Shown here: piece after piece, positions 26,819 through 63,510 of the stretch
Position numbering within the stretch: the first letter of the stretch is position 1
Layout of the letters: each line of letters opens with the position of its first letter
DNA from: Hydrolagus colliei
Lineage: Eukaryota
Direction of reading: 5' to 3'
NCBI GenBank assembly: GCA_035084275.1
Contig: CM068755.1
Span: 9,548,001 to 9,612,000 of the forward strand
Length of the DNA stretch: 64,000 nt
Notes under the pieces: model-generated
What the model saw: only the letters and a program-made list of their open reading frames with translations
Told to the model about the DNA's origin: nothing
Databases searched by the model: none
Translations under genes and position numbers: made by a program

Positions 26819-26918
26819 ATGGTGTTTGAGTCGGTGGTCGCTGATCTGCTGAACAGGTTTCTTGGGGATTATGTGGAGAACCTGGACAAGTCCCAACTCA
26901 AACTGGGGATTTGGGGAG
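26819..26918 (+). CDS. VPS13C: VPS13C exon 1 coding part (100 nt)
   Basis: [33 protein letters not shown]; gag|gtaagg. Confidence 0.96.
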
Positions 26919-27006
26919 GTAAGGGGAGGAGGTCTGATGTCGGAGACAGACGCGCACTGAAAAGGCCGGACTGAACGTGTTGTTTACTGGTGTCTGTGGG
27001 TACACC

Positions 27007-27046
<40 letters not shown>

Positions 27047-42000: not shown

Positions 42001-45000
42001 TGCCACTCCCGAGGCTTGCTGATGAGTCAGGCTGGATGGTCTATCATCAGCAGTGTCTTGGAATTCCGTGGCCCTGCCTGGCTCAGGAACCAGACCAATG
42101 CCCAGCATTCCTTTGGGAATAGCACAGCCAGCTCAGTCCCAAGGTGACCCCGCTTACTTCACTGATGGATGGCACTGCCAACAATGCAATACTGTATTTG
42201 AAATGTTAGCTCAAATTTCCAAGTCTCAAACTGGGATTTGAACCTGCAGCTTTATGAGGTGAGAGTGCAATGTTCAATGAGCCAAGGTGACACGTTTGAT
42301 TTGGAATAATGTTTCTGAGATAAAATGGCTTTCTTTGATCCTTTAAAAAGAAACCTCGGTTTTGGCTTCTTTAATCAATGCGGGTATGGAAGAGAATGGA
42401 ATGTATCAAAAATCCATTGATTGAGTACACTCCGCAGCATTTGTGAAGAAAAGTGAACAGATGACTCTTTTCAAAGTCTTGCAGCTTTGGTCCGAAAGCA
42501 AGATCAGCATCACAGTTGTGCAATGGTTTCAATGTACAATAGTTTGATAAAAAGTGGCTAGATTGACCTGCAGTTTTTGTTAATTAAGATGTCAGGAAAT
42601 ATTTGTTTGCACAAAATGGTATTCAACAGCTGGGATGGGATATCAGAAAGAGCAGTTGAGGCTGGGTTGCTGAAATTTGTCTTCTGAGAAGGCACTTGAA
42701 GGTTGGTATTCTGAAAGGATTAGATCTGATGAGTTAAAGGAATTTAATCCATCCAATTCTTTTACATGAAAGAATAATACTCCAGTACTTTTGTGGCCAT
42801 TATATCAACTTTGGGTCTCAGTCATTTTAAACAAACTCTGCTACAATATTTTAGTATTGGTGCACTACCACAACTCTCAATATTTATGTTATTAAGCTTA
42901 CAAAATAAGCAATTACTTTGTTTGAATATACATATATGTTTTGTGCTGGTTAGCAGACCATTTCTTTCTAATGCTGCAATTTCTAACTCTTACTAATATC
43001 TTTTATCCTCTTCTCGCTTTTGCTTGCTTGCATTGCTAAGGACATAAGCATAAAAAGTCTAAAAAACATTTTAAGAAATCAAAAGCACAAGCACGTTTGA
43101 AAGGTATGTATTAAAATTATGCTTCATTTATTATATAGCTGCAACATAAGCATTCTTTCTCTTTGATTTTCATGTGATACTATTCCAAATACTTTGTATC
43201 ACCCATTCCTGGGGGACGTTAGAATACTTACTTTGCCTACTTTGTTAATGATTGCATTGACTTTGTTGCAAAACTAGTTAATTCTATATTTATTCTGATA
43301 CTGAACTAGAGCATAAAGTAGAGTGCAACTCCTTTTATAATTTTTTTTGCATTAGGAAAAAAACAAGGCTATAATCAAGTAATCCCATGTTGTGTAAAGC
43401 ATGATGGATGTTAAATTAGAGCGAGATGCTTAATTCTATGCTGGATCAATATTTGGAGCTCTTTGTCACTCAAGGTCATTGAAGTGAGAAATAATTTGGA
43501 TAAATACTGAGCTTTCTTTGGAAATGTGTTATTGACATTTAAAAAAAACAACGCTGAAATATGCATTAATATAAAGGAGATATCTTGGAGGACACCTTGT
43601 AGAGTTACGTATACAAAATTATAAATTGAATTGAAAAAACGAATGCAGAACAATACACCAAGAAGGTAGAACGAGTGGACACTTTTAGAGTTGCAAAAGG
43701 CAATTTTAGGGCTAACAACAGGATGTTTTTCTTTATTAATGACTGGTGCAGATTGTCAGGTAGCTTTTTAAATAAAAGAAATGCTTGATTCTATGATGGG
43801 GAAAAGCAAAGTATATATTTTCTGGAATGGTGAATGTGCTGAAGGTGCTTACGAGATTCATTACGAGATTCATTCAATTACGAGATTCATCCAATCTCGT
43901 AATCGTAAAATCTTACAGCACAGAAGGAGGTCATTTGACTCCTCGTGTCTGTGCTGGCTCTTTGAAAGCTATCCAACTCTTCCCACTCTCCCGCTCTTAC
44001 CTCATAGCTCCACAAATCTTTCCATTTCACGTACCTATCCAATTCCCCTTTGAAAGCTTCTATCGAATCCGCTTCCATTGAATGATTGTCGAATGTGATC
44101 TTATGAATGATTGTTGGTTGCCAAAACAATTCATTTATGTTATCCAAGGTGTCACAAATTATTTGTCATGGCAATGATGACTCCCAAGAAACTTCATCCT
44201 GCGTACACGATCAGGTTTTCATGCACTAATGTCAAAGCTGGAGGGATTGTTTGTCTGTTTTGCCATAGCTTCTAATGTTACTTTACACTCTGAGCATGTT
44301 CCAGGTATTTCAGTTTCATGCTTTCCTTTAATAAATGGATTAGCATCATATTGAGAAATTCACCTTAAATTATTCTGATGCAGTCAAACCAAGTTGATTC
44401 AACTAGGTTTCTTAGTTTTATTATTTAAAAAAAACATGAGTGAAATCTGTAGATTTCTATTTGTGTGCATTTAATATAATCATGGCACTTGTTGAAGTAG
44501 CAAGTAAGGCCAGTGAACTTTGTGTATGGGTTGCCTGATCTAATACCTCTTTGCTGGATTTGATTAAATTTGTTGGAAGATATTCTCCAACATTATCATG
44601 TTTTTCAGCAGGTCTCTGGCAAAAATGCTCTACTTTCTCTTATTTTTTACTTTATAAGAAAACATGAGTGTCGTGTATACAGGTTATTGCATCCATGTTC
44701 ATGTGATCTGAGGATTTAATGTTTCAAACCTTATTATTCTATCATCAATATTTTGCGGCCTGGTTTGTGATTTGATTATTTAAGCCATATTTCAGTGTTC
44801 TTGTTGATATGATCAAGTTTACTGTTGCACCTCCAGAAACAGATATCATAGAATCATAGAATTTTACGGCACAAAAGGAGGCCATTCGGCCCATCTAGTC
44901 TGTGCCGGCTCTTTGAAAAGAGCGATTCAATCCCACTGCCCTGCCCGCTCCCCATAGCCTAATAGACCCGTTCTCCCTAAATAAAGATCTAATTCCCTTT

Positions 45001-48000
45001 TAAAAGTTGTTATCGAATCAGCCTCCACCACCTTTTCAGGCAATGCATTCCAGATTCGAACAACTCGCTGAGTGAAAAAAATTCTCCTCAGCTCCCCTCT
45101 ACTGTGCCTTGAAACTATTTTAAATCTGTGACCACGAGTCACAGATTCACCCACGAGTGGAAATAGTTTTTCTCTATTTGCCCTGTCGAAACCCCTCATG
45201 ATCTTATAAACCTCTATTAGGTCTCCCCTCAATCTTCTCTGCTCCAGAGAGAATAACCCTAGCCTATCTAGCCTCTCCTCATAGCTGAAGTCCCTCAATC
45301 CTGGCACCATCCTAGTAAATCTTCGTTGTACCCTTTCCAATGCCTTCACATCCTTTCTGTAGTGTGGTGACCAGAATTGAACACAGTATTCCAGCTGAGG
45401 CCTCACCAAAGTCCTATAGAGGTTAGTCAGCACTTCCTGACTTTTGTACTCTATACCCCTATTTATAAAGCCTAGTATCCCATATGCCTTCTTAACAGCC
45501 TTGTCTACCTGTCCTGCCACCTTCAACGAGTCACTAACACAAATCCCCAGGTCTCTCTGTTCCTTTACACCATTTAAAATTGTACTATCTAGCCTATATT
45601 GCCTCCCTTCATTTCTTCTCCCAAAATGCATCACCTCACACTTCTCTGCATTAAACTTCATCTGCCATGTGTCTGCCCACTTTACCAATTTGTCTATATC
45701 CTCTTGCAGATGGCTACTATCCTCCTCACTGTTTACTATTCTCCCTAACTTAGTGTCATCTGCAAACTTGGAAACTGTACTCCGTACACCCAAGTCCAGA
45801 TCATTGATGTAGATTACAAACAGCAATGGTCCCAAAACCGATCCCTGTGGCACACCACTGCTCACTTCTCTCCAATCTGAAAAACAGCCGCTCACTACAA
45901 CTCTCTGCTTTCTGTCTCGCAGCCAGTTGTGGATCCACGCTGCCACTGTCCCTTTTACGCCATGGCCTTTAATTTCATAATAAGTCTCTTGTGGCACTTT
46001 GTCAAATGCCTTTTGAAAGTCCATGTAAACTAATTATAGTTTCAGTTTCAAGCAGTATCTGCTTGAAACTGAAACTATAATTAGATTTAGGCAGGACACA
46101 TGATTTCCGCTGTGTGTACTGTTAAAGCAATAACATCACAAAGATCGTGGGTGGTGACTTTGTTACATTTGAAGCTTGACGGTTGCTTTAGGCTTTTGAA
46201 GCTTGATGGTTTCTTTAGCATATGACGTAAAATGGGACATTAAAAGCTGAAGCACACTGTGTGCACACACAAGTCCTTGAAGTTGAAGATGTTCACTTTT
46301 GTTTTTTTTAATTAACCTTTCAGATAAACCCAAAGAAGAAAAAAAGGATACTTTTGTGGAAAAGCTTGCAACTCAAGTCATTAAAAACCTGCAAATTAAA
46401 ATAACAAGCATTCATGTGAGATATGAAGATGATGTAAGTAATTGATGCCTGTTGACCTGAAAGCTCTTTGTATAATTGCATCTTTTATGTCAATTCTAAT
46501 TTAGGTGGAAAATATGCACAACGGGATTGGTTTATTATGAGTACAGGTTTCATTGCCTGACTAGAAAATCCGTTCTAGTAGGTAGTTTAAGTTTGTGGTT
46601 GAATTTTTTTTTAATCTTTCAGATTACAGATCCCAACAGACCCATCTCTTTGGGTGCCACTCTAGGGGAACTTAGTTTGCTGGTAAGAAACAAAAATCAA
46701 GTTGTTTTTTAAATCTTAAAAAAAGTTTGTTTCAAGTTGAAGCTATTCTACATCTATTGATTATGACGATAATGCAATTACAGTAAAAGCCCATTTATCC
46801 AGCACCCTTGAGACCTGGTCAATACCACTTAAAGCACATGCCGGATATTCGGTCGAAAACGCAAAAATAAATAATAATTTAATGCATTTATCTGGATAAA
46901 TTCCGGTTAATCGAATGCGGACCTTTTTTTTTGTGATGCCGGTTATACGGAAGTTACAGTGGATTGGGTGCCGGATAAACAGGCTTTTACTGTATGTAAC
47001 TTTTCAAGTGTTCTCGGGGCAAGGAATCAGAAAGAGGCCTTTGATCCCATTGAGCCTATTCTGACAGCATTGGTCCCATCGGCTGTTCAGGTGGACGTCA
47101 ACAACTGCAAAATTGGCTGCTTCATTTGCCTATAAAATAAGTGGAATTAACTGGCTTTTAAGTGTATTTCCTTGTATTTCGTGGCAATTTTTGTAATTGA
47201 ATCACCGGATGGTGCAAATAGGACTATATGGTCCCACCCTCTGGAACTCAATCCAAGAGTCCCTATGGCCTCGCCTTGTCTTGTCTCCTTCAAGGCCCAT
47301 CTCAAGACCTTCCTCTTTCTCTGTCATCTTCCCATCTCCACCTGCCTCTGCAGCCCTCACCCCTCTCAAATCCAATCCCCATCTTGGGTGCAAACCCAAA
47401 GTTTTAGATTGTATTCTCAAGACATGATAGCACTGTTAAAATGTTTTGAGAATGTTATAAAGTTTGCAAAAAAAAATTGTACTTGCATGTGGAATAGATG
47501 GCTGACATCAGCAGGTGAGCAGATTGCATTGCTTTCAGTTCAGTGGTACATGAAACGGAAGGAGTTATTAAACCTTCCCAATTAGAGTGCTCGATATCTG
47601 AATGCTACACCATTTAAACAAGGTAATCTGTTTGTTCCTAGTTGGAACCTCTTTATTAATCAGTAACCGAATGGTCCAGATGGCAGGTAGGAAAGGATTG
47701 CAGCAGAGAAGACTGGGAATTATTGTACAATCGAGCCATTAAGTGAGCAGCAGCAAATTGCGTGTCTTAAATATTTAGAAGAACAAACTGTCCCTGCAGT
47801 GTCTTTTAGTGACTTGTAAAGCTGTCAATTTATTGCAGTTAAAGTTAAGACTACACTCTGTGACCTGAAGTCCTTTCCGCTTCCCTTGAGGCTAAAAGGA
47901 AATATAAGCTGGACCCTTTTTCTCCGTTGATTCCAAATACTCAAATGTACATTATCTTATGGCTGAAATGGAGTACCTGCAACCTTGTGTAAAATGGAAT

Positions 48001-51000
48001 TGTGCAGTCTCAGAAGGTCCAAGGTCCAATTCCTGATTGGCGCTGAGTTTGTTGACTTCATGTGGGCTTTCAATAGGGACACTGTTGTTGACCCCAATGA
48101 CCCTACGTGCGAATGACAAAAATAAGACTGTGTTGCTTTACCTTATTCTATCGAGATGCCTCTTCTGATAAGTGAGCGAATATGGGTATTGAGCAAATGA
48201 CTGGATCACGCAAGGCCATAATGTCCTTAACCCACTAGCCAATAACAAATTGTTGGTCTCAGACACGAAGGTACAAATTTAGGGACTGAATAATAATAAT
48301 AATAATCATAATAATAATCCTTGCATTTTGATATCGTGCCTTTCACATCTTATCGATGTCTCAAAGCGCTTCACAGAATATACTGTAAAGTGAATTGACT
48401 GTATATTTGTGGGCGAAACGCGGCAGCCAATTGCGCACAGCAGTGTCTCACAAACAGTCATGGATTTAAATAACCAATTTGATTACAGTAAAAGCCCGTT
48501 TATCCGGCACCCTCTGGGGGGTCGACTAATTGATTGTGTCGGATAATTGGGTGCCAAGTTGCCGAAAACCCAACCCAAAAAATTTACTTATTTTAAAACA
48601 TACCATATTCATAATATTCAAAATAGTAACAGAATACTGTATGGATACTTACCAATAAAGATTCCAGCACACTGAGTAAAATGATTATTTTGTAAAAACC
48701 TTAGTAAAAACCCAGAGTTCGTACGTTTAATAAATGCGCATGTGCGCGCATTGCAAAGTGAGCATACACGCGATTGCTGGAATGGGGAATTGCCCCGGGA
48801 GGGGGATCGCGCAATCCGGTTGATCGAGTCACAGATAAATGGGCTTTTACTGTATTGTGGTTTTTTGGAGGGATTATTATTAGACGTGTGGAGTAAGGAA
48901 ACTTGCCCAAGATTTGAATGGTGGCCAATGCCTGAGAAAAAGTACCACAGCATTTCTCTGTTGTCTTAGTAGAGAAGTAAATAAAGATGATGGGGGAAGG
49001 GACTGAGGAGAGGGCAGAGTTTTCTTGGATATGTTTGCAAACATTGCAATACCTTGATCTCTTTATTAGACAATGTAAAAAGTAATAAACTGCTCTAGTT
49101 TTTATTTTTTCTGAGAAGTCTATGGTCTGAAATAGGCTTCATTATTTGGGTGGGAATTTAAACTGTTTACCTTTACCAGCTATTTCCCTCTTAGTCGCCT
49201 AATGAACATTTAATTCATCCAGTGGATTAACTCAAAACTCAATTTTAAAAACTGGATCAACAATTTTTGTATTGTCTGTGTAAATTTACACATGGTCAAT
49301 ACAATACAGTACTGTTCCTTAATTATAATCCTTGCATTTGATACAGCACTTTTCACGTATGCTAGACATCTCAAAGCGTTTCACAGAATATACTGTAGAG
49401 TGAATTGACTGTATATTTGTGGGAAAAACGCGGCAGTCAATTACGCACAGCAGTGTCCCACAAATAGTCGTGGATTAAAGTAATTTTTTTTTAGGGATTA
49501 CTATCAAGTGTTTGGAGTAAGGAAACTTGCCCAAGGTTTCACCCTGTCTGGAATCAAACCTAGGTCTCTTGCTTGTAAGGCGAGTGCTCTAACTACTGAG
49601 CTACAGGACTCCATACATCTTATAATGATAATAATAATACTTGCATTTGATGAAAAGTGCCTTATCATGTCTTTGAGATGTCTCAAAGTGCTTAACAGAA
49701 TACTGTGTAATGTTAAGTGAATTTACCATATATTTTGTGGGCGAAAAGTGACACTTTATTACTTGAATATCTTACTTAAATTTTAAATCGGTCTTAAAAG
49801 ATTATTAACAATTAAATACAACCTTTTTCTAGACTGCGGATGAAAATTGGAGACCATGCATACTGAATGAGGCTGCGAAAATAATCAACAAGGTATTTAC
49901 TATGTTTAATTACTTTTTATAAAATCTAGTGTAACATGAAATTAATCCCATGCAAACAAATTTAGTTATTTTGCAAAGAGTAATATTGTTGTACAAACTA
50001 TTCAAGTCATGGATCTTTGTCATCTTGTCCAGCTTTTTGTTATTTGTTTGTTGCATTATGAAATTAGAAATTGATTAAAAAATTTCCTCTTAAATACGTA
50101 TTTTTTAAATGACTGGATATTTCCATCTCGTGGGATAATACAGTTGACAGAGATTAGTTGCTCTAATCAGGTAGTCTGAACCAGTTATGGATGAGGAAAC
50201 AATGTGAATAATTGGTCATAGCTTAGTGAACCAAGAAATTCTTGCATCAGGACTTATCCATTTTAGTACTGTACAATGTCAGCCTCACTTCTTTCTCTGT
50301 CTCTGACATTCTCAATCTGAAGTTCTCTTACTTTTGTCCTCTCTCTCTAGGCCTCTTTCTCTTGAGAATTTTTCTCCCCTTTTCTCTTTCTCGCAAGTAT
50401 TTCTGTCTTTATATCTTTCTAAATCTCTCTTTCTAAATCTCTCGTCTCCTTCTTTCTCTCTCTCTCTCTCTGTTTGCCTCCCTAGGATTTTGTGGGAACA
50501 TGAAGTGTCACTTCAAAAATCAAGTGTATAATCTTTGTAAACATTTTAGTTATCTGTTATTGCATGATATTTCTTTCTGTATACATTGGAAGTGAAAGAC
50601 ATTTCATCTCATTCATTGAGTGTTATAATTTAAGATGTAAGTTTGATGGATGGCTTGGTGTAACGAAAGAATGCCATATTCTAGCTTTTTGATAGACTGC
50701 TGAATTTTGCCCCTTCCTTAAGGAAAGTATAACAGTAATTGTTTCTTTGTTAGCTTGTTCGTCTGGATTGCCTTTGTGCCTATTGGAATGTGAACAGTTC
50801 ATTGCTTTATCAAAGCTCAAGGGAACAGATTTTGGTATGTACACTTAGCATTTTCTCACTAAGAGTGGAGAGATGCCACCAGCTGGTGGAATATGTGCAA
50901 TCACACTCTGTACACACAATGTTTGGGCATACTCTCTCCAATTAACTACATCGCTCATGTCTTTGTCAGTTTGTCAATTTAAAACATTTATAAAAAAAAC

Positions 51001-54000
51001 TATCTTTGAGTGCCATAAAACCAATCTGTTATGAAGACATGTTGTATGTGATTTTTTTTCATTCATGATCTTGGCTTGTCTTGAATAGTCTTGAATTTCC
51101 CATCATTTGTTTCCATTAAGATTGTTCCAAAATATTTTGGGCTATGGTGTAACTATGCAAGAATTAGTGATGTTGAGGAAGGATATGTAATTTTGCAGTT
51201 TCAGTGTAAATGCAATCATTTATTTATGTTTTCACAACAGCTCTGGGATTCTTATAAAATATTAATTTTGTTCCTATTGAAATGAGCCATGCAACACATA
51301 ATCTTTATCTTAACAGATACATCTGAAAGAAGGAATAGCTTCAAGTACTTATGAACCCAAAGATTATCAGTACAGTAAGTATCAGCAGTGAACATAGATT
51401 CATCAGTGTTATTTGTATAAGATATAATAATAACTGTCTCCTTATTTACTTGAAAAAAGAGACAATTCCTTCAACAAACAAAATAATGGAAGGTTTTCTC
51501 TTCAAACAAATTGCTGCAGCACTTGTGTTTTGATCTTGAGACCCATCCTTAAAGCAGTAAAAAAAAATGGTCACTATATGAAAATTGTGTTTCTACTCAG
51601 TTGGGTTAAATGAATGTTTTAAGGAGCAATTTCCAACTTTTCCATTAAAGTGTCTTAATTTTATGCTGCTCAACCCCATTAAATGTTTTGCTTACAGTAT
51701 GATGTGCATTGAAATGTATGTTCATTGTAATATAATAATGTATGTTCAGATAATCCAAAAACTACCTTTTAATTTTGATTCAAAACTAAAACTCGAGAAC
51801 AGCAGTATTCAATGTAATAACTGACAGCAAAGCTAAAATTTGTTGAACTTGCCGAAACAAAGTTTATGTCAGACTTATAAAGGTCTTCACACAGTAAAAT
51901 TATTTAATAAACCATCTGTGTCTGTTCAAAAACCTCCATTAAAACAGGAAATATTCAAAGGCCAGTGTTTTCTGTCTATCCATTTTAAGTTGTTTGTTGA
52001 AACTTTTTTTTATCCTCAAGCTTTTAGACCAATGTCAGCCTCTGCTAAACTTTGTATTAACACTCACGCTGATGCTGAACTGAATTCACCGAAAATGAAA
52101 TTGGACATGGAGGTGCAGAGCATTGCCATAGAGATGACCAAAGCACAGGTAAAATGGATTTACCTGCTGTTTGATGGCTACATCTATTGTATGATCATAG
52201 GTGTGCTTCACCCAGTACCTCGCCACAGGATTCACAAACAGACAGTGATGTTAATGAGACAGGGAATTTATTGAGTAACTGTGACTCTGAATTAATGTGC
52301 TTAGACTTCAGTATGTTATGTGACTGTGTTGAGATGAAGGATGGAGGGATAAAGAAATCAAAAGATTTATCCAGCATTTGTTGCTCAATATTTCTTAATT
52401 GACCCCATAGATATTTTATTTTCTGTTACAATTTTGCTGAAGGAACATTTTTTTGAGGACCGTGGTGTTGTACAAACAATATTGCTATTTTCCTTCACAA
52501 TATTTGGCAGTGAACATTTTCATTCACAATTTGAGTATTGCTGAAGGATTATAGTGGTTGGCAAGCTGGGATCAGTGAAGCATTTTGGAACTAAATTCTG
52601 ATTGTTTAAGTCTAAAATATTGACTGTGTGTATGACTGAAATTATTTAAATGCTCATGTGTGCTGATTTTTTCCCAGTATCTTAGCATGATGGATCTCCT
52701 GGAATCTGTGGATTACATGGTCAGAAACATCCCTTACCGAAGATACAAACCTAATGTCCCAGTTCATAAAAATTTCAATAAATGGTAAGAATGAACCAAA
52801 TTTCAAACATTATATGTAATTATCTAATTAATTACTGGAGGCTTTTTTCTTCTTCTTTGTTTCTGACCCTTTTCTATCCACAAACCTTTTTTGAATACAA
52901 CTTTGCTGGGTCACAAAAGGGAGTGGTTCTTCATGTGTAAAGATACAGTTCTTCTGACGTGAAATTACAAGTGTAATTTTGTTGTTGTTTTAGTTGTGAG
53001 TGGAGATGGGACACCTGTGAGTGCCATTGTTGGCGAGCACAATGTTCCTACCAAAGGTTCCTATCAATTAGGAATGTTGAACCATGGTTAATTTTTCTTT
53101 ATCCTGGCTATTTGTTTCAGTCACTTTTGGCTTTGAACAATTGGTCATTTAAAAAAAAGTGCATCCCAGAGGAAATTATTTTTATTTATTTTAAAATGAT
53201 TTCATTTATTGTCTCTTATATTTGGTGGAGTCCTCTAGCTCAGTGGTTAGAGTACTCGCCTTACAAGCGTGAGACCTGTGTTTCGAATCCGGTTCAGGGC
53301 GAAACCTTGGGCAGGTTTCCTTACTCCACATGCCTAATAATCCCTCAACAAAAACAATAATAAAATTGGTCATTTCAATCCATGACTGTTTGTGGGACAC
53401 TGCTGTGCACAATTGGCTGCCGCATTTTGCCCACAAATATACAGTCAATTCACTTTGCAGTATATTCAGTGAAGCACTTTGAGAAAAGCGCAATATCAAA
53501 TGCAAGGATTATTATTATTATTATATTTGAGGGAGGTTTCTGTTCATCAGAAGGGGAAAGAGAATTTAGTGTGATTAAAACATTTTTTGATATCTTTTTT
53601 ATATTGGCCACCCCAACAAAGCAATTCACTTCATCTCCAACCCTAGAAGAGCACTTCTCATTGAACCAACATGATGCTTCCATTTTTGACCCAATTCTTA
53701 CAGCTCTCTGTCTTTAATACTATACATTTATTTCAAGGTAATAATGCACAGTAGTAACAAAGTACTGTAATTGCCTTAATGACAGGTGGCAGTATGCAAT
53801 CACCGGAATTCTGGAAGTTCATATCAGGAGAAAAAGTCAAATGTGGTCATGGAAAAATATCAAGAGTCACAGACAAAATCTGAAAGCCTACAAGCTGGCT
53901 TACAAGAACAAGTTGATGCAGAACAAGCCTTCGGATGAAATACTGAAACATGTTCAGGTAAAACGGAATCCGAACAAAACGACCCCTTCTTACTAAATGT

Positions 54001-57000
54001 TTACCATTGTTAACGTATTTGATCTCCTAGAAATACTTCTGCACTGTTTTTTTTAGGCACCAAGTATTTAACTAATGATATCAGTGGGAAGTTGTTATGC
54101 TGTCTGCAACAGGTTGAGTAGAAAGGCAGATTGCTGTGCATGCAGAAAACAACTGGCTGGTGGATTGCATAATTGCTGGAGGAGCTGTTTTCCAGAATCA
54201 ACATTAGATGAGTTCCGGCTGCTTGTTGCCAAATTGATCAAAGGTTCCGTGACGTAACTTGAAAGGATTAATGGTCATCCGTCTCGTGGGAACTCGTTGG
54301 TGCAAATAGTGGTTTGCCTATAAATCAATTTACCGCTTTGATGTTCATTATTTGTGAGGTACTTTGTAATGTTCTGACGTCAGTTATTGCAAAGTTTGTT
54401 TTTTCTTTTGAGTCAGTTCCAAAGACAGTTTGATTTTGCAAACATTTTGTAACATGCGTTCAAATACACCATCAATTTGTCAGATTAAGCTTTTCAGTGT
54501 TGATTGATTTTTTTTCTTTGTTTTTGTTTTCTGTTTGTTTTAGACTCTGGAGAAATTGCTGGATGTTTTCAATATTACCCTAGCAAGACAACAAGCCCAT
54601 GTTGAGGTAACTGATTATTTTACTGTATGTAGTGTGTGCTCAGTGATCTCATGAAATCAATCAATCAATCAATCCTTACATTTATATAGCGCCTTTCACG
54701 TCAAGAGGACATCCCAAGGTGCTGTACAGTCAGGTAGGGACAAGAGCAGGGTGGGAGCGGCCAGGGCAGGATGAAGAAGGGTAGGAAACTATATTTGTGG
54801 GCGAAACACAACAAATGGCTTCTTCTTTTGCTTTCAGGTGATCAGATCCGGACATAGGATGTCGGGAAAGAAGGGAGCAGAGAAACAGAGTGGAGGATGG
54901 TTTAGTGGACTATGGGGGAGAAAAGATTCAAAGAAGAAGGGTGAAGAGGACGTCAAATCTGTACCGGAAAGTTAGTAAAATGTTACCTTAAATCTTATTT
55001 TGATGTTTGGTGAAGGTAGCTCAAGATTGAGTTGCATATGTGGCAGTCAGGTGTCAGCCTGGCTCAGTTGGCTTCTCTCTCGCCACCTAGGTGAGAGGTT
55101 TGTGGTTCAAACCCCAGGTTAGGACTTGGAATTCATACCTCTTATTTTAGTATTCCATGACATTTTTTCAGAATGAAAATTGTTAAAAAGTTAAAGTCAA
55201 ATAAATTTTCAGCGTTCTGTTGTGCGGCTCAGAGTTTCTTTAACTTTTTTGATGTTTTCAGGTATCAATGAGCTCATGACGCCTGAAGAAAAGACTAAGT
55301 TATACACAGCTATCGGTTACAGCGAGAGCTACCACAACTTGACACTACCAAAACAGGTCTGGTATGCTCTTAAATAACCGTGTTTAACCCACAAAATATA
55401 CAGTTAATTCACTTGAATTATTATATTTTATATATTATTGAAGTATATTCTGTAAAGCACTTTGAGACATCTCAAAGATGTGATCAAGTGTTATATCAAA
55501 TGCACAGATATTATTTTTATATGTCAAATGCAAGAATCATTATCATTAATCATTAAATGTGAGTTTTATTGATCAGATTAATTCTGCTCAACAAATGCAT
55601 CTCTGGTTTTAACCATTAAGAGGACATCTAAGAATGCTGTGCATTTTTTTTCCTTTCTTGTGACTTGTTAGAATTTGGGGTCTCTTGCATTATTGCGTGG
55701 TAAGAAATAGCTCTCCTCTTGTGCTTGGGCTGAATTAATTTTTGTCATGATTTTGGTTTCATGTTAAAATTGGTGTCTTTCAGTATATTGCAAATGTGCT
55801 GACCTTCAAGCTGGTCACAACCTCCATCACCATCCGAGAGGAACCAAATCTTCCAGAGATTCTTAAAATACAGACGATTGGCTTGAGCATGTGTGTTTCC
55901 CAGCGTCCTGGAGCACAAGCACTAAAGTAAGAATTTACCTGGGGAAGAAATGAGCAAAGCTCAGGTTAAAAGCATGAGGTACAGTTAGCATAACATTCCT
56001 TTTTAGTATTTAAGCTCAAAGATGGAGAATGGTAAAGAGACCTTCACCAAGGATAGAGTTTCTACTAGACACTTTATTTACCCTTAGTCAGACTCGTGTC
56101 CTTTGGAATCTTATGATGGAGTGGTGAATCGTAAATTATGAAAAAATTAATAAAAAGAAAATTTAAACCCAAATCCTTTTTTGGTAGAGTGGAAACTCGA
56201 TTGGAACACTGGTACGTAACTGGTTTGAAACAGCAGGATGTAATTCCATCTCTCATCGCTTCTGTTGGAAGTCCAAAATCCTCCTTACTCAATGTCTGTT
56301 TTGAGATTAATCCGGAGGAAAGCAGTGCAGATCAGTTAGTAAATGTCCAGTCCCAGCCGGTGGAAATGATTTATGATGCTGTAAGTATGATTATATTGCA
56401 TGTTATATTTCCATTACGTACTTAAAATCTCTTGCTTAGTCTTACTTAAACAGTAAAATATGGTTGGAAGCTGTATGTTGCTTACCTTACTCAGAAATTT
56501 CATTCTAATGGTTTGAAATGCCATGAAGATTTAACGTGCTTTTTTATGTTATCAAAGAGACAATCATATGATAAATTCTTACAACACATAAATTCTTATA
56601 AATAACACTGAAATAATTACTTGAGCGATTTCATTGCAACTCATAGTTTTGTTTTCAACCAATACTGTTATATTCATATTTTAATCTGAGCATTTGCTCT
56701 ATTGATTAAAATTATCGTATGAAACTCTCTCCTTTCTACTTTTCAGCAAACAGTAAATAGTTTGGTAGAATTTTTCCAGACTAACAGAGGATTGGATCTT
56801 GAACGCCTAACTTCGGCAACTTTAATGAAATTAGAGGAAATCAAGGAGAGGACTGCAACAGGTAAACATTTTTTTCAAAGAAAAAACAAAATGTAGATTA
56901 TAAAGATAAAATTGAAGCTGCCTCGGGTGACTTATCTGTTCCAGAATGGAGTTCACAATATTGTTGCTACCCCATAAAGTGTTTTTAATTTGTCTCAAAA

Positions 57001-60000
57001 GTTAATGCATTTAAAACAACTTTATTCATTTAACTTTTTCCTAGGTCTGTCGCATATAATTGAAACACGAAAAGTCCTTGATCTTCAAATCAACCTTAAG
57101 CCATCTTACTTGGTGGTCCCACAGACTGGTTTCTACAGTGACAATTCAAACTTACTTATTTTGGACTTTGGTAGTTTCCAGGTATGTTACTGGAAATTCA
57201 TAGCTACAATTGTTTTGCAAAAAGAGTGTGACTTAAGTCATAATGTTTGCATCAAATCGCTTCATAAAATATACTGTAAAGTGAATTGGCTGTATATTAT
57301 GTGGGCAAAACGCGACAATTGACTAACAGCTTACAGTTCCTACTTACAGCTTTGTAAACAGAGGAAACTTGCCCAACATTTCACCCTGCCGGTAATTGAA
57401 ACCCAAGTCTCTCGCTTGCGAGGCGAGTGCTCTAATCACCGAACTACAGGACTCCATATAGCACCTTATTATCTCGTCAAAACTTCCCAAAGCATTTTAT
57501 CTGATTTACTGTAAAGTGTAGTGATTAAGTATTTGTAAGAAATTCATTAGCTGGATTGTGGATATCAACATCCTGTTGAGAACAATCCTACAAACACCCA
57601 TGAAGTAAATAAATGACTAATTTTATTCAATACAGTATAATTTTAACTTGTGCAGTTTCTCCGTTGAGTAACTCAATAATGTAGCATTTTTAATGGATTA
57701 TATTTTTAAAAGATTACTCTTTCATTCAAAATGCTTTGATTTGGAGCTGTTTGACAGTCTATAAATAGCAAAGCATATATAAATTACACATTTACTTTTC
57801 TACAGTTGAACAGTATCAACCACGGTGATCAGAAAGTGATATCTCCAAGTTTTGCATCACTGGAGGAAATTTTGGATCGAGCCTATGAAAAATTTGATGT
57901 GAAGCTCAAAAATGTCCAGTTGTTGTTCAGCAAACCAGGTCCATTTTTATTTAAAAATCTCTCTGTTTAAATGAGCTTGTTAATTCCTTTGACTGTTTAT
58001 CCACTTGAGAATCTGTCTACCTCGCTTATTTATTTTGGAAAGATGTGCAGTGTATGAATGACATGCACTGCTTTGACTGGTGATTGTCCACCTCTTTCAG
58101 GCAATAATAATAATACTTATAATATTTTTAATTGTATTTTTCCAGCAATAGGAAGCATGTGATGCCCTGAATTATTTTACTGTCATGTTTTACTCGTTTG
58201 AGATGAACTACTTTATTTTCAGGCCCTTTCCCCAGGAAGGAATCTTAGTACTGTATCACCTAAAAAAAATGTCCACTATTGTTTGTTTGGAGAACTGAAT
58301 CATGTGTTTATAGCACAGATCCTGAAGATCTCAAACTTGATTATTGGTGTATTTTAGGCTATTTAAGTTCTAGTTAGATCAATTTGTTCTGCCATCTGAG
58401 GAGCGCTTTCTAATGTATTCTCTTTATTTCTTGTGAGAATGTGTTGTGTTTTGGAATTATTCACTTCCAAAGTGACGCTAAATCACATCAGTGGCGGTAC
58501 AACATTTCACACTTGTTTATTGCCTCTCATTTCGGGTAATGTCTCAAAATGTCTTTGCAGAGATGGAATGGAAACCAATATGTAGTTACTTATGAACAAA
58601 AGATTAGTCAAGGATGAAATGTACTAATCTCGTGTACTTAACTCTTAACTAAACATGTGCTTCATACAGAATCTGTCTCTTTCAGGTCAAGACTGGAAGT
58701 TTGCTCGTGTCCAGCATTCCTCTTCCCAGCATATATTACAGCCTATGAATGTTGAAGTGAAGATTGCTAAAGCTATGGTGGAAAAAGATGCCAGACTGCC
58801 TAAGTATGTTGAACATTTAAGCCTGTTGAGCTTTCATTCAATTTTCAAGACTTTGTACTAAAATCCAAAGGTCACAGCAATGATCTTATATAAAAGCTAC
58901 ACAGCAGAGTGGTGTAATCAGTTGCAATCGAAAGGTAGGGAAATACATCCTGGTAACAAAAATAAAAGCTTTTCAATTCCTTATTCACGGGAGTTGATGA
59001 AGATTATACATTCCTATGTTCGTTTACAAGCGGGCAGTTGATAACCCTGATTATCGATATTCCACTGTACTGCTTTTCAGCAGCAAGGTTGAGGGGTGTA
59101 GAAGAAAAGACAAGCAGATATTGATGGGGATGGGGTAAGGGAAGGGGTAAATTCAACTGCTTCTACTATATTTGGGAAACAGTGACATCTTAGACAAATG
59201 TTCTGAGGAACTGAAAAAAAGAATATATAAGGTTAACTATTGGTTGAAAAGTGAAGAGTGTGAAAGTATAAATATTGGCTTCTAACCAGCCAAACCTGTT
59301 GAGTGATTTAAGGTGTTGTATATAATAAATAAATATAATCCTTGTATTTGATTTGTATAACTTGATATTTGATGGCTATTGAATCTTAACAACATTTGGT
59401 TTTCTTTCAGATTTAAAGTCTCGGGTGAACTGCCTTTGTTCCACGTCGCAATGTCAGACGAGAAGATAAAAAGTATTTTCGAACTTGCTGATAGTATCCC
59501 CTTTCCTCAGAGCCAGTTCTCTTCCAGATCACCTACCAAAGCAAAGGTTAGCACATCAACTGGTGTTTCCAAACCGTTCTGTTTCTCTTCATGGCTGGAA
59601 CTCTGCCACAAATAACAGAAGTTCTAACTGTTATGATTATACTTGTAGAATGCATAGTATATTCATTTGCATTTAGGAAAGAAAAAAAATTACTTTTGTT
59701 GCATTATTTAGAATTTAAATGTTTCAGAAATATGCTAATAATGCATGTAATTGAAATTGCTTCAAGTCTCCCTGTAAAGAATGTCTTTTTTTAAGAGTTT
59801 GCAATCCCCATTTAATTTTTGTAATATTTCAAGGCAAATTATTCAATTTGGGGATACTCACTTAAATATAAAAATATACCATTCAAGCAAATATCTCTCT
59901 TGACTGAAAGGTACAAAGTCCCTTTATGTTTTTGTCCACAGGTATCTTTAGCTGCAAGATCACGAAAGGCTTTTGACCCGAGACTCGTAAATGTTGGATC

Positions 60001-63000
60001 TGCCGGATTGCCAGAAGCAGATGGTTCAGGTGAGGCTTGAGTGTCCAATTATTTATGATGCACCAAATGTAAACGTCATCCTCCCGATATGAAATGTGCT
60101 ATACAAATGTTGTTGTTGCTGTGATCAATTCATGTTTCTATTGTTTAGCACGTCATTAGCACGTTAAACCTCATTAACTCCCGAGATATATAGAGCTGTG
60201 CTTAACTAACCACAGCCGGTTTGCACACAGCAATGTCCCACAAATAAGCCATGAGGTGAATGACCAATTGTAGTTAGTCACTAATTAAATATTGAGTCAT
60301 TGATATAAAGTGTTTTTACATGTTCAGCCGTATCTTGAATCCCGGTGTAAATAAATGGATCACTATATCTCTCCTGTTACTTAGGTTCTCCAGAATCAGA
60401 GGAGGAACTCAGAGCTGAAGATGCTGAACTGACACGTAAGGAAACCCTGGCAGCAGGTGATGCGCCGCTGTTTGACGATTATAAAGAGGCTGTAGCAATC
60501 GAAGAGCTGACCAACTTGCAGCTGAAGTTTGAGATTAAAGAGGTATAAAAATTGCCGATTATGTGCATGTTTTTTTTCTCTCATAGATTGCACGATTCGT
60601 GTTCTTTGAAACCCTACTTTTGTGCATGTGCTTGTGTGTATTTGCGTAAAATACGAGGGCAATTTTTATCTGCTTTGGCTTTGAAATTGTCTTAGCTCTA
60701 GATGTACCCTTCATGGCAACCTGTTAGTTATTATTTAGCTCTCCAGGTGAAGAAAACATTTGTGATATCTGTCCTGAAATTGCCCTAAACCAAAGTACTG
60801 TTGTTCTACTGTCTTGGTACACCCTGAAGTGTTATTCTGTTTCAATCCCATTTGAAATGTTTTAGACCACGATGACGTGCCCTCTGAGTTATGTTCTCTC
60901 GAGACTGAAGAGTCCCAGTCTGTCTAATCTTGGCTCATAACTCATTCTTTGACGCTGGAAATTGTCCTTGTTGCTCTTCTCTGCACTCTCTCTCGGGCCG
61001 GGGCAGCCCCCTTATGTTGCGGAGAACAGAACTATGTGTGATAGTCCAGGTGTGGCCTGATCAGAGCACAGTATAGCCTGAGTATGACCTCCCATTAACT
61101 GCTTTAGCAGTATAGACCAGTATCCTGTTTGCTTTGTTTATTGCTGTCACACTGTTTTGACACATTGAGCCACGAGTTAACTACGTCCCTAGTCTCTTTC
61201 CGTTTCCTCTTTGGCAAATTCCATCCCATCCACGGAGAACATATGTTTCCTATTCGAACTTCCTATATATATTATCTTATGTTTATCTGTATCAAACTTA
61301 ATTTGCCAGTTATCAGTTCTTGTACATAAACCCATCAAGCTCTCTTTGTTGCACATTTTTACTGCTCCTCTGATCCTGCAGTTATCCCGATTAATATGTT
61401 CAGTAAAAGCCTGTTTATCCGGCACCCTCGGGACCTGGCCAATGCCGGTTAAAGCGCCTGCCGGATATTCGGCCGAAAACGCAACAAATAAATAAATAAA
61501 TAATAATTTCAATGCATTTTTCCGGATAAATCGGATCCCGGAGTATCAGCAGAACTTATCAGGTGAAGTGGTTGATTATCAGCACCTGGAAAAGAAAAAA
61601 GAAAAATCACCAATTTCATCGAAAATTAATACAGTATTTTAAAATGTTGAATTAAAATGAAAACATGCCAATTATCCGATCGGGTGCCGGATAAATGGGC
61701 TTTTACTATACAAGGAACAAGACGATGAATCGAAAGTCATGCAGCCCACCCACTCACCGTAATTATTTAATTATGTCATCCAATTGTATTTCTGAGTAAT
61801 CCTAATGGTTTTGCTATTTTTACCTTTCAAGGAAGATCATTATTTCCTTTGCTCCATATGGATTGCTTGGTGTGCAGTAAGATGAGTGCTATGTTTAGTG
61901 GACATGATGTCTTGTTCTTCACATCTTGAGCAGTTCGAAATGCGGCTTGTTGAACAATAGCCAACTGCTCGATAACTAGAAATCCTTTTATCATTATTCT
62001 ACAGGTAGTTGTAGAACTCACCAGGAAAGAAAACACGGAGAAACCTTTCCTTGTTTTCAGCGTGTCTCAGCTAGGTACTGAAGCCAAAATTAGAACATTT
62101 GATTTAACAGCTACATCATATTTGAAGAAAATCAACTTGGATTATTGTGAAATTCAAGGTAAGCACCAAACACATAATGAGTCTATCATCGTGATGTCTT
62201 TAAGTGGTGATTAATAAGTACAGTATTTTAATTGATCATGTTTTTAGAATTTGGTTCTGAATCTATTCTGGGAATAGTGTCCCTTCCATCTTGTGGTCAG
62301 CAACAGAATATAATAAAATCCCAGGAATTTACAGCATTTCTTTTTTAAGAATGCGGTCAGTGTGTCTACAGTTAGCAATATTAATCCATCCAGTTGAAGC
62401 TTAGTTCATTCGGATTTGAAGTCTTAATATAATGAGCATGTTATGCCCTCTGTGGCAAGCTACTTCAACTTCCTCTGTGCAAAGATCAGTCGCTTATTTC
62501 AGCAGTTTTATTTGGATTTGTTCCTGCGACATTTGATACGGTGCCTTTCATACCAAGAAAATGTCTGAAGCAGTTTGTAGCATATAGTGCAAAGTGTAGT
62601 GGCTGTATTTTGTAAATGATTCTTTAATATATATATCTTTAAACACAATGCTGTGTTACATAGAATGAAACAATGATATGGCTTGGAAAGAGTTATTTGG
62701 CCAAACTCATGTTTGTCAGACAAGTTCTTTTGAGGGGATGTTTGAAAATGTTACAAGACTTGTAAAAGTTTGGCAAGACTGTCCAGATGTTTCACATTTG
62801 TTTATCCTCGCTTTCGGCAGTGCAGAGACAGCAGAATGAGTGAGTTGCTAAGGGCAATTTTTGCGCAGGCACAATGATGAATTTCTTTACCTAGGGGTTA
62901 ATTAGTTACTGAAGCAGGTTACCAGGAAGGGTGGTTGAGATCACGACACTGGATTCATTTTTGAAAACACGCACAGCTTATTGCTTTAATGGACAGGGGA

Positions 63001-63510
63001 CAGAGGGTCTAATAGAAGGATGAGTTCAAATGGACCAAAGGATCTTTTTCATCTGAACCTATTATTGCACTCTACATAGAGTAGAGCTTTATGAATGCCT
63101 TTCTGTTTGAGTCAAATTTTTGGCATGTTTTCATTTTAATTCAACATTTTAAAATACTGTATTAATTTTCGTTGAAATTGGTGATTTTTCTTTTTTCTTT
63201 TCCAGGTGCTGATAATCAACCACTTCACCTGATAAGTTCTGCTGATACTCCGGGATCCGATTTGCTGAAAGTGGAATATGTTAAGGTTAAACTGCATGAC
63301 GATTTGTTAAATTTATTTTAGTCCAAGCATAATTTGATTTCATGTCTAATATTCACTGTTTTCTTTTTTCTTAATGCCTAATTTGCTTAGGGTGTTGAAA
63401 CTTGACTAAAACGTAATTAAATTTTTTTATGTGTGTTATGTGCGTTGCAGGCTGATAAAAATGGTCCACAATTCAAAGATAATTATGACAACACTGAACA
63501 AATGGTTAAG
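26819..63510 (+). CDS. VPS13C: Intermembrane lipid transfer protein VPS13C, exons 1-30 (5' part, 1031 codons; continues past the window)
   Basis: Chorein-N start [34 protein letters not shown]. Thirty GT-AG exons join in one open frame (3093 nt). Has the VPS13C-type exons 6/7 and lies next to C2CD4. Confidence 0.96.
27005..27157. repeat. (CTGT)n/(TG)n microsatellite
   Basis: Read directly. Confidence 0.9.
27158..27293. other. Assembly gap (N run)
   Basis: 136 Ns. Confidence 1.
28285..28496 (+). mobile_element. L2-type LINE 3' end, second subfamily
   Basis: ctggaactcccttcc...ttcaggtcacagctaaagacctttctttttgacc, tail ggcgtggagggctctatataaatccac(gtt)n. Confidence 0.75.
29025..29068 (+). CDS. 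VPS13C: VPS13C exon 2 (44 nt)
   Basis: ctag|[15 protein letters not shown]|gtaagt. Confidence 0.95.
29348..29848 (+). mobile_element. Composite of two SINE pieces with an antisense L2 tail nested at ~29623-29683
   Basis: Head ggagtcttgtagc, second CORE segment from ~29510, family tail to 29848. Confidence 0.85.
31462..31504 (+). CDS. VPS13C: VPS13C exon 3 (43 nt)
   Basis: acag|[14 protein letters not shown]|gtaagc. Confidence 0.93.
34844..34939 (+). CDS. VPS13C: VPS13C exon 4 (96 nt)
   Basis: atag|[32 protein letters not shown]|gtaagt. Confidence 0.95.
37333..37369. repeat. Perfect 18-bp inverted repeat, 1-nt spacer
   Basis: caggttcaacaatcaaca-a-tgttgattgttgaacctg. Confidence 0.97.
38003..38104 (+). 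CDS. VPS13C: VPS13C exon 5 (102 nt)
   Basis: taag|[34 protein letters not shown]|gtactt. Confidence 0.95.
39060..39690 (+). mobile_element. Old degenerate CR1 RT fragment
   Basis: Remnants FQKAFDK, cacaaaggtccatttt, tttattgcagataaatgtaa. Many stops and indels. Confidence 0.6.
39765..40005 (+). mobile_element. L2 LINE 3' end
   Basis: tggaactccatcccgcagcc...gactgttcagtgctttaggacgtcctcccgac...ttgttgttg matches 4460-4680. Confidence 0.8.
40506..40568 (+). CDS. VPS13C: VPS13C exon 6 (63 nt, probable cassette exon)
   Basis: gaag|[21 protein letters not shown]|gtaggt; phase 1-1. Confidence 0.88.
40775..40895 (+). mobile_element. SINE 3' tail
   Basis: tatacagtcaattcactttacagtatatt...aagcgctatatcaaatgcaaggattattattatt. 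Confidence 0.85.
43041..43103 (+). CDS. VPS13C: VPS13C exon 7 (63 nt, basic, probable cassette exon)
   Basis: taag|[21 protein letters not shown]|gtatgt; phase 1-1. Confidence 0.88.
43893..44078 (-). mobile_element. CR1 LINE 3' fragment
   Basis: [16 protein letters not shown] matches the CR1 ORF2 end. 3' UTR similar to the 44.9-kb copy. Confidence 0.85.
44848..46030 (-). mobile_element. Young 5'-truncated CR1 LINE (~1.18 kb; RT ORF 46024-44927, 365 aa)
   Basis: [49 protein letters not shown]. (attctatg)n tail. Candidate TSD tatc at 44844-44847 and 46056-46059. Confidence 0.96.
46030..46084. repeat. Perfect 26-bp inverted repeat, 3-nt loop
   Basis: ctaattatagtttcagtttcaagcag-tat-ctgcttgaaactgaaactataattag. 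Confidence 0.97.
46324..46433 (+). CDS. VPS13C: VPS13C exon 8 (110 nt)
   Basis: tcag|[37 protein letters not shown]|gtaagt. Confidence 0.96.
46623..46682 (+). CDS. VPS13C: VPS13C exon 9 (60 nt)
   Basis: tcag|[20 protein letters not shown]|gtaaga. Confidence 0.95.
46781..46992. mobile_element. Tigger/pogo-like MITE, copy 2 (212 bp)
   Basis: TA-cagtaaaagcccatttatccagcaccc ... gggtgccggataaacaggcttttactg-TA. Confidence 0.92.
47215..47400 (+). mobile_element. L2 LINE 3' fragment
   Basis: ctctggaactc...tccttcaaggcccatctcaagaccttcctcttt ([11 protein letters not shown]). Confidence 0.7.
48000..48230 (+). mobile_element. Possible LF-SINE-like ancient repeat
   Basis: agaaggtccaaggtccaattcctgattggcgctgagtttgttgacttca resembles the LF-SINE-type body as I recall it. 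Highly diverged. Confidence 0.35.
48290..48915 (-). mobile_element. SINE split by a nested MITE
   Basis: Tail half 48290-48485 and CORE half 48853-48915 join into the family consensus once 48486-48852 and one TA are removed. Confidence 0.9.
48486..48852. mobile_element. Tigger/pogo-like MITE, copy 3 (367 bp)
   Basis: TA-cagtaaaagcccgtttatccggcaccc ... gataaatgggcttttactg-TA. Confidence 0.92.
49322..49612 (-). mobile_element. Full-length tRNA-derived SINE, followed by another tail at ~49625-49750
   Basis: Minus strand ggagtcctgtagctcagtagttagagcactcgcc...tatcaaatgcaaggattat. Confidence 0.92.
49833..49892 (+). CDS. VPS13C: VPS13C exon 10 (60 nt)
   Basis: ctag|[20 protein letters not shown]|gtattt. 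Confidence 0.94.
50754..50834 (+). CDS. VPS13C: VPS13C exon 11 (81 nt)
   Basis: ttag|[27 protein letters not shown]|gtatgt. Confidence 0.94.
51317..51374 (+). CDS. VPS13C: VPS13C exon 12 (58 nt)
   Basis: acag|[19 protein letters not shown]|gtaagt. Confidence 0.9.
52021..52148 (+). CDS. VPS13C: VPS13C exon 13 (128 nt)
   Basis: caag|[13 protein letters not shown]...[10 protein letters not shown]|gtaaaa. Confidence 0.93.
52678..52784 (+). CDS. VPS13C: VPS13C exon 14 (107 nt)
   Basis: ccag|[35 protein letters not shown]|gtaaga. Confidence 0.95.
53227..53522 (+). mobile_element. Full-length tRNA-derived SINE
   Basis: ggagtcctctagctcagtggttagag, ttcgaatcc, accttgggcaggtttccttactccac, tail with (att)n. 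Confidence 0.93.
53786..53957 (+). CDS. VPS13C: VPS13C exon 15 (172 nt)
   Basis: acag|[36 protein letters not shown]...ILKHVQ|gtaaaa. Confidence 0.95.
54544..54606 (+). CDS. VPS13C: VPS13C exon 16 (63 nt)
   Basis: ttag|[21 protein letters not shown]|gtaact. Confidence 0.95.
54655..54785 (-). mobile_element. L2-type LINE 3' tail with (TTGA)n end
   Basis: (aatc)n cttacatttatatagcgcctttcacgtc...cccaaggtgctgtacagtc. Confidence 0.7.
54838..54970 (+). CDS. VPS13C: VPS13C exon 17 (133 nt)
   Basis: tcag|[34 protein letters not shown]...VPE|gttagt. Confidence 0.94.
55051..55135 (+). mobile_element. DeuSINE-type tRNA head fragment
   Basis: gtgtcagcctggctcagttgg...ggttcaaacccc...aggacttg, same head as the 12.9-kb copy. 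Confidence 0.6.
55262..55356 (+). CDS. VPS13C: VPS13C exon 18 (95 nt)
   Basis: tcag|[31 protein letters not shown]|gtctgg. Confidence 0.95.
55784..55926 (+). CDS. VPS13C: VPS13C exon 19 (143 nt)
   Basis: tcag|[19 protein letters not shown]...SQRPGAQAL|gtaaga. Confidence 0.95.
56188..56380 (+). CDS. VPS13C: VPS13C exon 20 (193 nt)
   Basis: gtag|[17 protein letters not shown]...[10 protein letters not shown]|gtaagt. Confidence 0.95.
56747..56861 (+). CDS. VPS13C: VPS13C exon 21 (115 nt)
   Basis: tcag|[38 protein letters not shown]|gtaaac. Confidence 0.95.
57045..57181 (+). CDS. VPS13C: VPS13C exon 22 (137 nt)
   Basis: ctag|[29 protein letters not shown]...LDFGSFQ|gtatgt. Confidence 0.95.
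57250..57455 (-). mobile_element. SINE (long-CORE variant, internally deleted)
   Basis: Minus strand ggagtcctgtagttcggtgattagagcactcgcctcgcaagcgagagac...gggcaagtttcctctgtttac. Confidence 0.82.
57806..57938 (+). CDS. VPS13C: VPS13C exon 23 (133 nt)
   Basis: acag|[10 protein letters not shown]...[27 protein letters not shown]|gtccat. Confidence 0.94.
58686..58803 (+). CDS. VPS13C: VPS13C exon 24 (118 nt)
   Basis: tcag|[21 protein letters not shown]...[12 protein letters not shown]|gtatgt. Confidence 0.95.
59411..59546 (+). CDS. VPS13C: VPS13C exon 25 (136 nt)
   Basis: tcag|[33 protein letters not shown]...TKAK|gttagc. Confidence 0.93.
59942..60029 (+). CDS. VPS13C: VPS13C exon 26 (88 nt)
   Basis: acag|[29 protein letters not shown]|gtgagg. 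Divergent linker, but the phases fit. Confidence 0.82.
60385..60542 (+). CDS. VPS13C: VPS13C exon 27 (158 nt; 149 nt if the acceptor at 60393 is used)
   Basis: ttag|[13 protein letters not shown]...[14 protein letters not shown]|gtataa. Confidence 0.88.
60690..61330 (-). mobile_element. Old degenerate CR1 fragment
   Basis: [11 protein letters not shown]...EETERD. ctatactgtgctctgatcaggccacacctggactat ([12 protein letters not shown]). Confidence 0.75.
61401..61708. mobile_element. Tigger/pogo-like MITE, copy 4
   Basis: cagtaaaagcctgtttatccggcaccc ... gggtgccggataaatgggcttttacta-TA. Confidence 0.9.
62005..62158 (+). CDS. VPS13C: VPS13C exon 28 (154 nt)
   Basis: acag|VVVELTRKE...[31 protein letters not shown]|gtaagc. 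Confidence 0.95.
62730..63070 (+). mobile_element. Old CR1 3' fragment
   Basis: ttgaggggatgtttgaaaatgttacaag...ttctttacctaggggttaattag...ggaagggtggttgag remnants of the CR1 ORF2 end. Confidence 0.55.
63206..63285 (+). CDS. VPS13C: VPS13C exon 29 (80 nt)
   Basis: ccag|[27 protein letters not shown]|gttaaa. Confidence 0.95.
63451..63510 (+). CDS. VPS13C: VPS13C exon 30 (60 nt)
   Basis: gcag|[20 protein letters not shown]|gtgaga. Confidence 0.94.

Follow-up and report, generated by a model that had tools for sequence, protein, structure and literature searches.

Loss of the ancestral FFAT core from VPS13C in the holocephalan Hydrolagus colliei

How does a bridge-like protein reach the endoplasmic reticulum (ER) if the motif that anchors it there has decayed? 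Human VPS13C (BLTP5C or PARK23, linked to Parkinson's disease) carries an FFAT motif for VAP binding, placed at residues 877-883 in PMC13430412. PMC3261905 describes the motif as present in "most vertebrate orthologues" and "well conserved even to fungi"; its passages on the subject name no exceptions, and the word "most" implies that exceptions were seen. Among the top-ranked results of our literature searches, none reported that fish VPS13C has lost its FFAT; subscription journals and bioRxiv supplements were outside their coverage. The DNA analysed here, called the window, is 64,000 nucleotides of Hydrolagus colliei (contig CM068755.1, positions 9,548,001 to 9,612,000, forward strand). A sequence-only reading of it had proposed that VPS13C has lost its canonical FFAT, with a possible replacement about 25 residues downstream. 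The human motif cited in that reading agrees with its row in Table EV1 of PMC7705450 (ESESDD EYFDAED GEPQTC, score 0).

We built a spliced VPS13C model on the Callorhinchus P0269 reference, using the window and 120 kb of downstream sequence. It has 85 exons and 3,764 aa, with one terminal stop and no internal stops, and it matches the reference at 3,408 of 3,757 residues (90.7%). Exons 1-30 lie at 26819..63510 (+), as placed by the spliced model and a PDB match to human VPS13C; the remaining gene extends about 50 kb past the window. Exon 25 (59411..59546, +) encodes a conserved strand and helix and the beginning of the FFAT-bearing loop, as given by the model exon ends and a match to human VPS13C 804-844. 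Exon 26 (59942..60029, +) is mid-loop and shows no FFAT-like site by the model and scoring. Exon 27 (60385..60542, +) has canonical AG/GT ends. It holds the acidic tract, the broken FFAT site, the loop remainder and the next conserved strand, and 43 of its 53 residues are identical in Callorhinchus. The 85-exon model thus confirms the earlier placement of residues 884-895 in exon 27.

The protein is a VPS13C orthologue. It falls inside the vertebrate VPS13C clade (tree support 96/98) and outside VPS13A. The exons adjoining exon 27 match human VPS13C better than VPS13A in the PDB (32 vs 19 bits and 75 vs 52 bits); exon 27 as sole query gave no PDB match. Separate VPS13 loci are found in the genome on contigs C1, C2 and C34, and the one on C1 matches VPS13A. 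The internal duplicated VPS13C segment is present by tblastn, and the frame has the full length of about 3,750 aa. Over the first 120 residues, the chorein tip, identity is 98% with Callorhinchus and 92% with horn shark. The FFAT loop is the fastest-changing region, with 80% identity vs 89-98% elsewhere.

Two further features of the locus were observed. Just upstream of VPS13C, 23303-24685 (+) is a single long open frame (461 codons between stops) whose C-terminus holds a C2 domain; by its sequence it would fit a C2CD4-family gene, the neighbour that VPS13C has at the human locus. Past the window, at about 9615540-9615860 and 9626300-9626620 of the same contig (C22 of genome G000), two 305-bp exons of the internal duplication have nearly identical translations, and the duplicated exons adjoining them are diverged. 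This near-identity suggests gene conversion between the repeats.

What is left of the ancestral FFAT is a 12-residue remnant (aa 884-895, 60393..60428, +). It keeps the acidic tract and has lost the aromatic residue at position 2 and the acid at position 4. More precisely, the old core (aa 888-894) presents Leu instead of Phe or Tyr at position 2, Ala at 4 where Asp or Glu is expected, and Glu instead of a small residue at 5, and its score is 14. The upstream tract SPESEE remains, as the sequence-only reading had claimed for the acidic flank. All the registers across the site score at least 7.5. The site aligns with shark EFCDAKE and primate EYFDAED. The earlier description of the change, YFD replaced by ELR, holds for the loss of the core and not for its form: the alignment shows a gap of about two residues plus F-to-L, not a plain three-residue swap. 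The holocephalan core is shorter than shark EFCDAKE by this gap, which is common to the window species and Callorhinchus and whose exact placement is ambiguous. The F-to-L change is present only in the window species; Callorhinchus retains Phe in a core that is also broken (EFRAEDA). The alignment shows, as far as the two species represent holocephalans, that the core broke first and that the window species later changed Phe to Leu.

FFAT scores were computed with the matrix in Table EV4 of PMC7705450, with Asp or Glu at position 4 for conventional motifs, as in PMC10948934; they are therefore not scores of the original conventional matrix (Slee & Levine 2019; Murphy & Levine 2016). The cut-off of 2.5 is that of PMC10948934. 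Two forms of the score were used, one over 19 residues and one over the core plus upstream tract (N-tract, our own variant, in which the primate motif scores 0). Our code reproduces the STARD3 example of Table EV4 (2.5). In four scoring modes, no conventional or phospho-FFAT at or below 2.5 was found in the whole 3,764-aa model; the best values were 3.0, 3.0, 3.5 and 3.5. Phospho-FFAT candidates (F/Y at 2, S/T at 4) reached 7.0 at best in the loop and 3.5 in the protein. Scoring the full protein had been proposed as a check of the claimed loss. With a best value of 3.0, it finds no canonical motif elsewhere, and the loss is borne out. From the matrix and human mutagenesis, VAP binding is predicted to be abolished. 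One other motif was considered and rejected as an ER anchor. It has the form D/N-YY-D/E-G-A/S at aa 2,900-3,000, approximately, and scores at or below 2.5 in many fishes and 3.5 in the window species. We rejected it because it lies at the C-terminal end and is common to FFAT-bearing sharks and coelacanth.

The broken site is not a polishing error. A Logan contig with a depth of about 69, from the only run found, shows no differences from window 60214-60900; this read-level check agrees with the assembly across exon 27. Since the run may derive from the same sample as the assembly, it gives no independent population evidence.

The neighbouring introns presented other observations. Window 61528-61671 is a 144-bp inverted copy, 99.3% identical, of 63120-63263, a stretch that holds the VPS13C exon 29 acceptor and the first part of that exon. 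The copy is contained in a short inverted-repeat element of intron 27 (about 61401-61713), and the inverted pair therefore flanks exon 28; other copies of this element do not contain the exon-29 insert. In the run, contigs span 63120-63263 at single-copy depth, and no contig connects 61528-61671 to its flanks, missing cover that proves nothing. The copy may be a recent templated insertion, a polymorphism or an assembly artefact. The run contig has C and the assembly G at 61945, at full depth, and two letters differ in 61686-61990. The reads may come from another individual or haplotype, or the assembly may be wrong here.

We scored 203 VPS13C rows, comprising 120 of 705 and 120 of 879 matches listed in two homologue searches, plus two seeds; the full-length seeds came from a representatives search with 67 matches. 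Each row is an isoform cluster, and the ranking followed similarity to a frog or Callorhinchus query, so the rows are no random sample. They contain no zebrafish, medaka, bichir, lungfish or usable cyclostome, and the holocephalans are two species. One lamprey row (P0066) seemingly lacks the exon and was left out of the counts. Among the rows listed, the loop scored at or below 2.5 in 130/133 lobe-finned fishes and tetrapods. The three failures are Microcaecilia and two cuckoo-family birds. Sharks and rays had it in 15 of the 18 rows listed, the other three scoring 3.0 with F2 and D4 kept. None of the five Callorhinchus rows did (one species; two models do not contain the site). For the ray-finned fishes, the result was 0/47 among the rows listed, from 40 species that span sturgeon, paddlefish, gar and bowfin to percomorphs, with a minimum of 4.5. 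There were 107 further ray-finned cluster members (5 without the anchor and 7 under 900 aa), and the 95 that were scored also showed no conventional FFAT in aa 6-1450.

Individual groups depart from this pattern in their own ways. Two of the three caecilians score 2, and Microcaecilia 7. Bird rows P0135-P0186 present a weakened motif with a bulky residue at position 5, many of them scoring 2, and the two cuckoo-family rows (P0157, P0258) drop to 4 and 6. Sturgeons and paddlefish (P0123, P0209, P0210 and isoforms) carry a candidate phospho-FFAT, EFMTAEE, with score 2.0 at aa 430-524, approximately. Salmonid rows (P0215, P0217, P0219, P0220 and others) have two tyrosines in the acidic tract near the ancestral site, scoring 4 as phospho and 5 as conventional motifs; they are possibly a partial re-emergence of the motif. 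One coho salmon UniRef model with a phospho score of 2.0 was set aside, as the match looks like intron read-through; the other salmonid rows score 4. Amphioxus and crinoid present phospho-type motifs in the same loop, with scores of 2.0 and 1.5.

The direction of change can be read from this distribution. The motif occurs in sharks, rays, coelacanth, tetrapods and VPS13A, and the phospho-type occurs in amphioxus and crinoid, which makes the motif ancestral and its absence a loss. A tree was made with 25 rows and the 525 residues preceding the loop, the loop itself being excluded. It joins the window species with Callorhinchus (100/100) and both with elasmobranchs (99/97). The ray-finned fishes group together (96/97), and Microcaecilia falls among caecilians (100/99). 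Hence the three losing lineages are separate. The simplest reading of these sequences is that the FFAT was lost at least three times: in holocephalans, in ray-finned fishes and in one caecilian. The ray-finned loss is an independent event, via substitution and loop shortening, and the loss in VPS13C is older and far wider than the window species alone.

The loss is specific to VPS13C, since the VPS13A motif and VAP are kept. The VPS13A of this genome has an FFAT score of 0. VPS13A-type proteins score 0 in Acipenser sinensis (sturgeon), 1.5 in Gouania (clingfish) and 1 in Denticeps (denticle herring), and the VPS13C of Acipenser sinensis and of Gouania lacks the motif. The genome has two VAP loci. 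In both, the MSP exons are kept and the expected lysine-bearing stretches, which contain the FFAT-binding residues, are present.

The proposed replacement is DYKEAVA (aa 912-918, 60477..60497, +), 24 residues past the old site. Its translation does have Tyr, Glu and Ala at FFAT positions 2, 4 and 5, as had been noticed. However, it scores 3.0 in the N-tract form and 6.5 in the 19-residue form, both above the cut-off. The upstream tract holds just two acids, and positions 3 and 7 are Lys and Ala. The stretch aligns with a loop called disordered in human (PMC13430412, PMC9303930), close to the next conserved strand. Its Callorhinchus equivalent differs at 4 of 7 residues and scores 11, and the motif is absent in the 12 elasmobranch species aligned. 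A best score of 3 or less appeared in 6.7% of 5,000 loop shuffles and in 60% of 200 whole-protein shuffles. The replacement is thus not upheld, and DYKEAVA is probably a chance look-alike, a weak and probably non-functional FFAT resemblance. As a candidate for motif turnover, the sturgeon and paddlefish EFMTAEE, which lies nearer the N-terminus, would be better than DYKEAVA.

Could a working FFAT nevertheless exist, in a new place or hidden in the gene? A late re-gain would make DYKEAVA a new weak motif that restores VAP binding in the lineage of the window species. It is the lowest N-tract score in the protein and lies inside the same loop, its Tyr 2 and Ala 5 are changes from Callorhinchus in the direction favoured by the matrix (11 to 3), and Rab3GAP1 shows that a Glu at position 4 can be tolerated (PMC3261905). 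Its tract, Lys 3, Ala 7 and scores tell against it. Moreover, in Table 1 of PMC3261905 the single-copy motifs with scores of 2.5-3.5, under another scoring scheme, gave targeting ratios of 0.86-1.02 vs 0.92 for the negative control. Callorhinchus has neither motif, which means that there was no continuous hand-over from the old site to DYKEAVA, and the loop is the most variable region. The score of 3.0, the absence in Callorhinchus and the shuffle rate of about 7% make turnover unlikely. A real FFAT in an unannotated alternative exon or elsewhere, an assembly error, or a later gain in tetrapods would also explain the observations. The 36,442 bases of introns 1-33 do contain three FFAT-like readings at or below 2.5. 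One, in intron 27 (60942..60962, +, score 2.5), is inside an old dispersed repeat with copies of about 70% identity on other contigs and is not a usable exon. Another, in intron 2, is formally possible as an in-phase cassette, but its acceptor and donor are poor and it has no Callorhinchus match; the other two readings, that of intron 27 included, have no in-phase AG..GT cassette. None of the 95 annotated ray-finned isoform rows adds a conventional FFAT. The identical contig and the break at the same site in Callorhinchus speak against an assembly error. The motif in the same loop of sharks, rays, coelacanth and VPS13A, with the phospho-type in the amphioxus and crinoid loop, excludes the later gain that the sequence-only reading had named as a way to be wrong. 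Taken together, explanations of this second kind are very improbable.

It is also conceivable that the decayed site still works, or that the protein has another task. The retained acidic tract, rich in Ser and Thr and phosphorylatable, might still bind VAP, or some other basic partner in the ER, by weak electrostatics, to a degree that suffices once the protein is concentrated at the contact. Both holocephalans and the ray-finned fishes have kept the tract in its place although the aromatic core is lost, faint targeting occurs without the position-4 acid (PMC3261905), and phosphorylation of the human region is reported (PMC13430412). Nevertheless, the assay of PMC3261905 showed no targeting once both aromatics were replaced (ratio 0.89), and human core mutants with an intact tract are cytosolic (PMC6168267). 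The loop phospho-FFAT scores 7.0 in the window species and at least 4 in ray-finned rows, bar one doubtful salmon model, and acidic low-complexity loops can persist for other reasons. We give this residual binding a small chance. Alternatively, the VPS13C of these lineages could use another donor membrane or adaptor instead of the ER. Human VPS13C needs the FFAT for ER association (PMC6168267, PMC9303930), and VPS13B, which does not have this motif, works at the Golgi (PMC10953354, PMC12066543). However, neither the chorein tip nor the rest of the protein shows reduced conservation, and three independent re-targetings would be less economical than a dispensable capture motif. We regard such a change of job as quite improbable.

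The reading that we prefer, and consider probable, is an intact holocephalan VPS13C in which the ancestral FFAT was destroyed and likely not replaced, with high-affinity VAP binding predicted to be absent. The earlier suggestion of a VAP-independent VPS13C fits better than a replacement, although such a protein is not peculiar to this lineage, given the 0/47 ray-finned rows with the motif. FFAT-less fish VPS13C likely reaches the ER by other means. Its C-terminal end, through Rab7 on endolysosomes or at lipid droplets, would bring it to contacts that OSBP/ORPs or other VAP-bound tethers have already formed. Lipid could then be drawn from the ER via a low-affinity contact of the conserved chorein tip, as has been proposed for ATG2, SHIP164 and yeast Vps13, none of which has an FFAT. 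In this view the FFAT would help in capture, outside the transfer machinery, and several lineages dropped it.

Published work touches these steps from both sides. A second, low-affinity contact between chorein and the ER is proposed in PMC9303930. PMC7999203 describes yeast Vps13 as having no predicted FFAT and the Atg2 N-terminus as binding the ER directly. VAB-Rab7 recruits VPS13C to lysosomes, and OSBP/ORP ER-lysosome contacts form on a similar time course (PMC12081312). On the other hand, mutation of the human FFAT leaves an N-terminal VPS13C fragment cytosolic (PMC6168267), and the FFAT-less relatives treated in PMC9303930 show no general ER localisation. For these reasons, a motif-free protein may tether poorly or use another donor membrane. 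Weak motifs can still give faint ER targeting (PMC3261905).

More tentatively, and with somewhat less than even confidence, we suggest that jawed vertebrates gave up the VAP anchor, treated as a defining feature of VPS13C, on three or more occasions, one of them at the ray-finned base or close to it, and that most fish VPS13C would tether and transfer lipid through a VAP-independent interaction with the ER. If the loss at the base of ray-finned fishes is true, zebrafish VPS13C is probably FFAT-less too, and in fish models of PARK23 the protein may be wired differently from the human one. Human VPS13C may share a VAP-independent ER interaction, masked by its FFAT. With natural FFAT-less variants, one could look for whatever the chorein end binds at the ER. 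Such orthologues, otherwise conserved in sequence, offer a direct test of whether the VPS13 N-terminus couples to the ER beyond VAP.

Compared with human VPS13C, the window protein is a full-length orthologue with the same internal duplication, C2CD4-like neighbour and acidic loop. The human loop has a score-0 FFAT core that is needed for ER tethering, whereas the window protein has none. The VPS13C of Callorhinchus milii (XP_007905785) is 90.7% identical and has the same shortened, broken motif, but it keeps the Phe and does not contain the DYKEAVA look-alike. In ray-finned fishes (sturgeon, paddlefish, gar, bowfin and teleosts), VPS13C likewise kept the acidic tract while the core is gone, and the VPS13A protein, in the species scored, keeps its motif; their VPS13C differs in its independent loss and in the candidate phospho-FFAT near aa 500 of sturgeons and paddlefish. 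Finally, ATG2, SHIP164, yeast Vps13 and VPS13B are bridge-like proteins that work without a conventional FFAT (PMC10953354, PMC7999203, PMC9303930). They belong to other subfamilies and have other targets; in the window protein, by contrast, the loss is secondary, within a group of VAP-binding orthologues.
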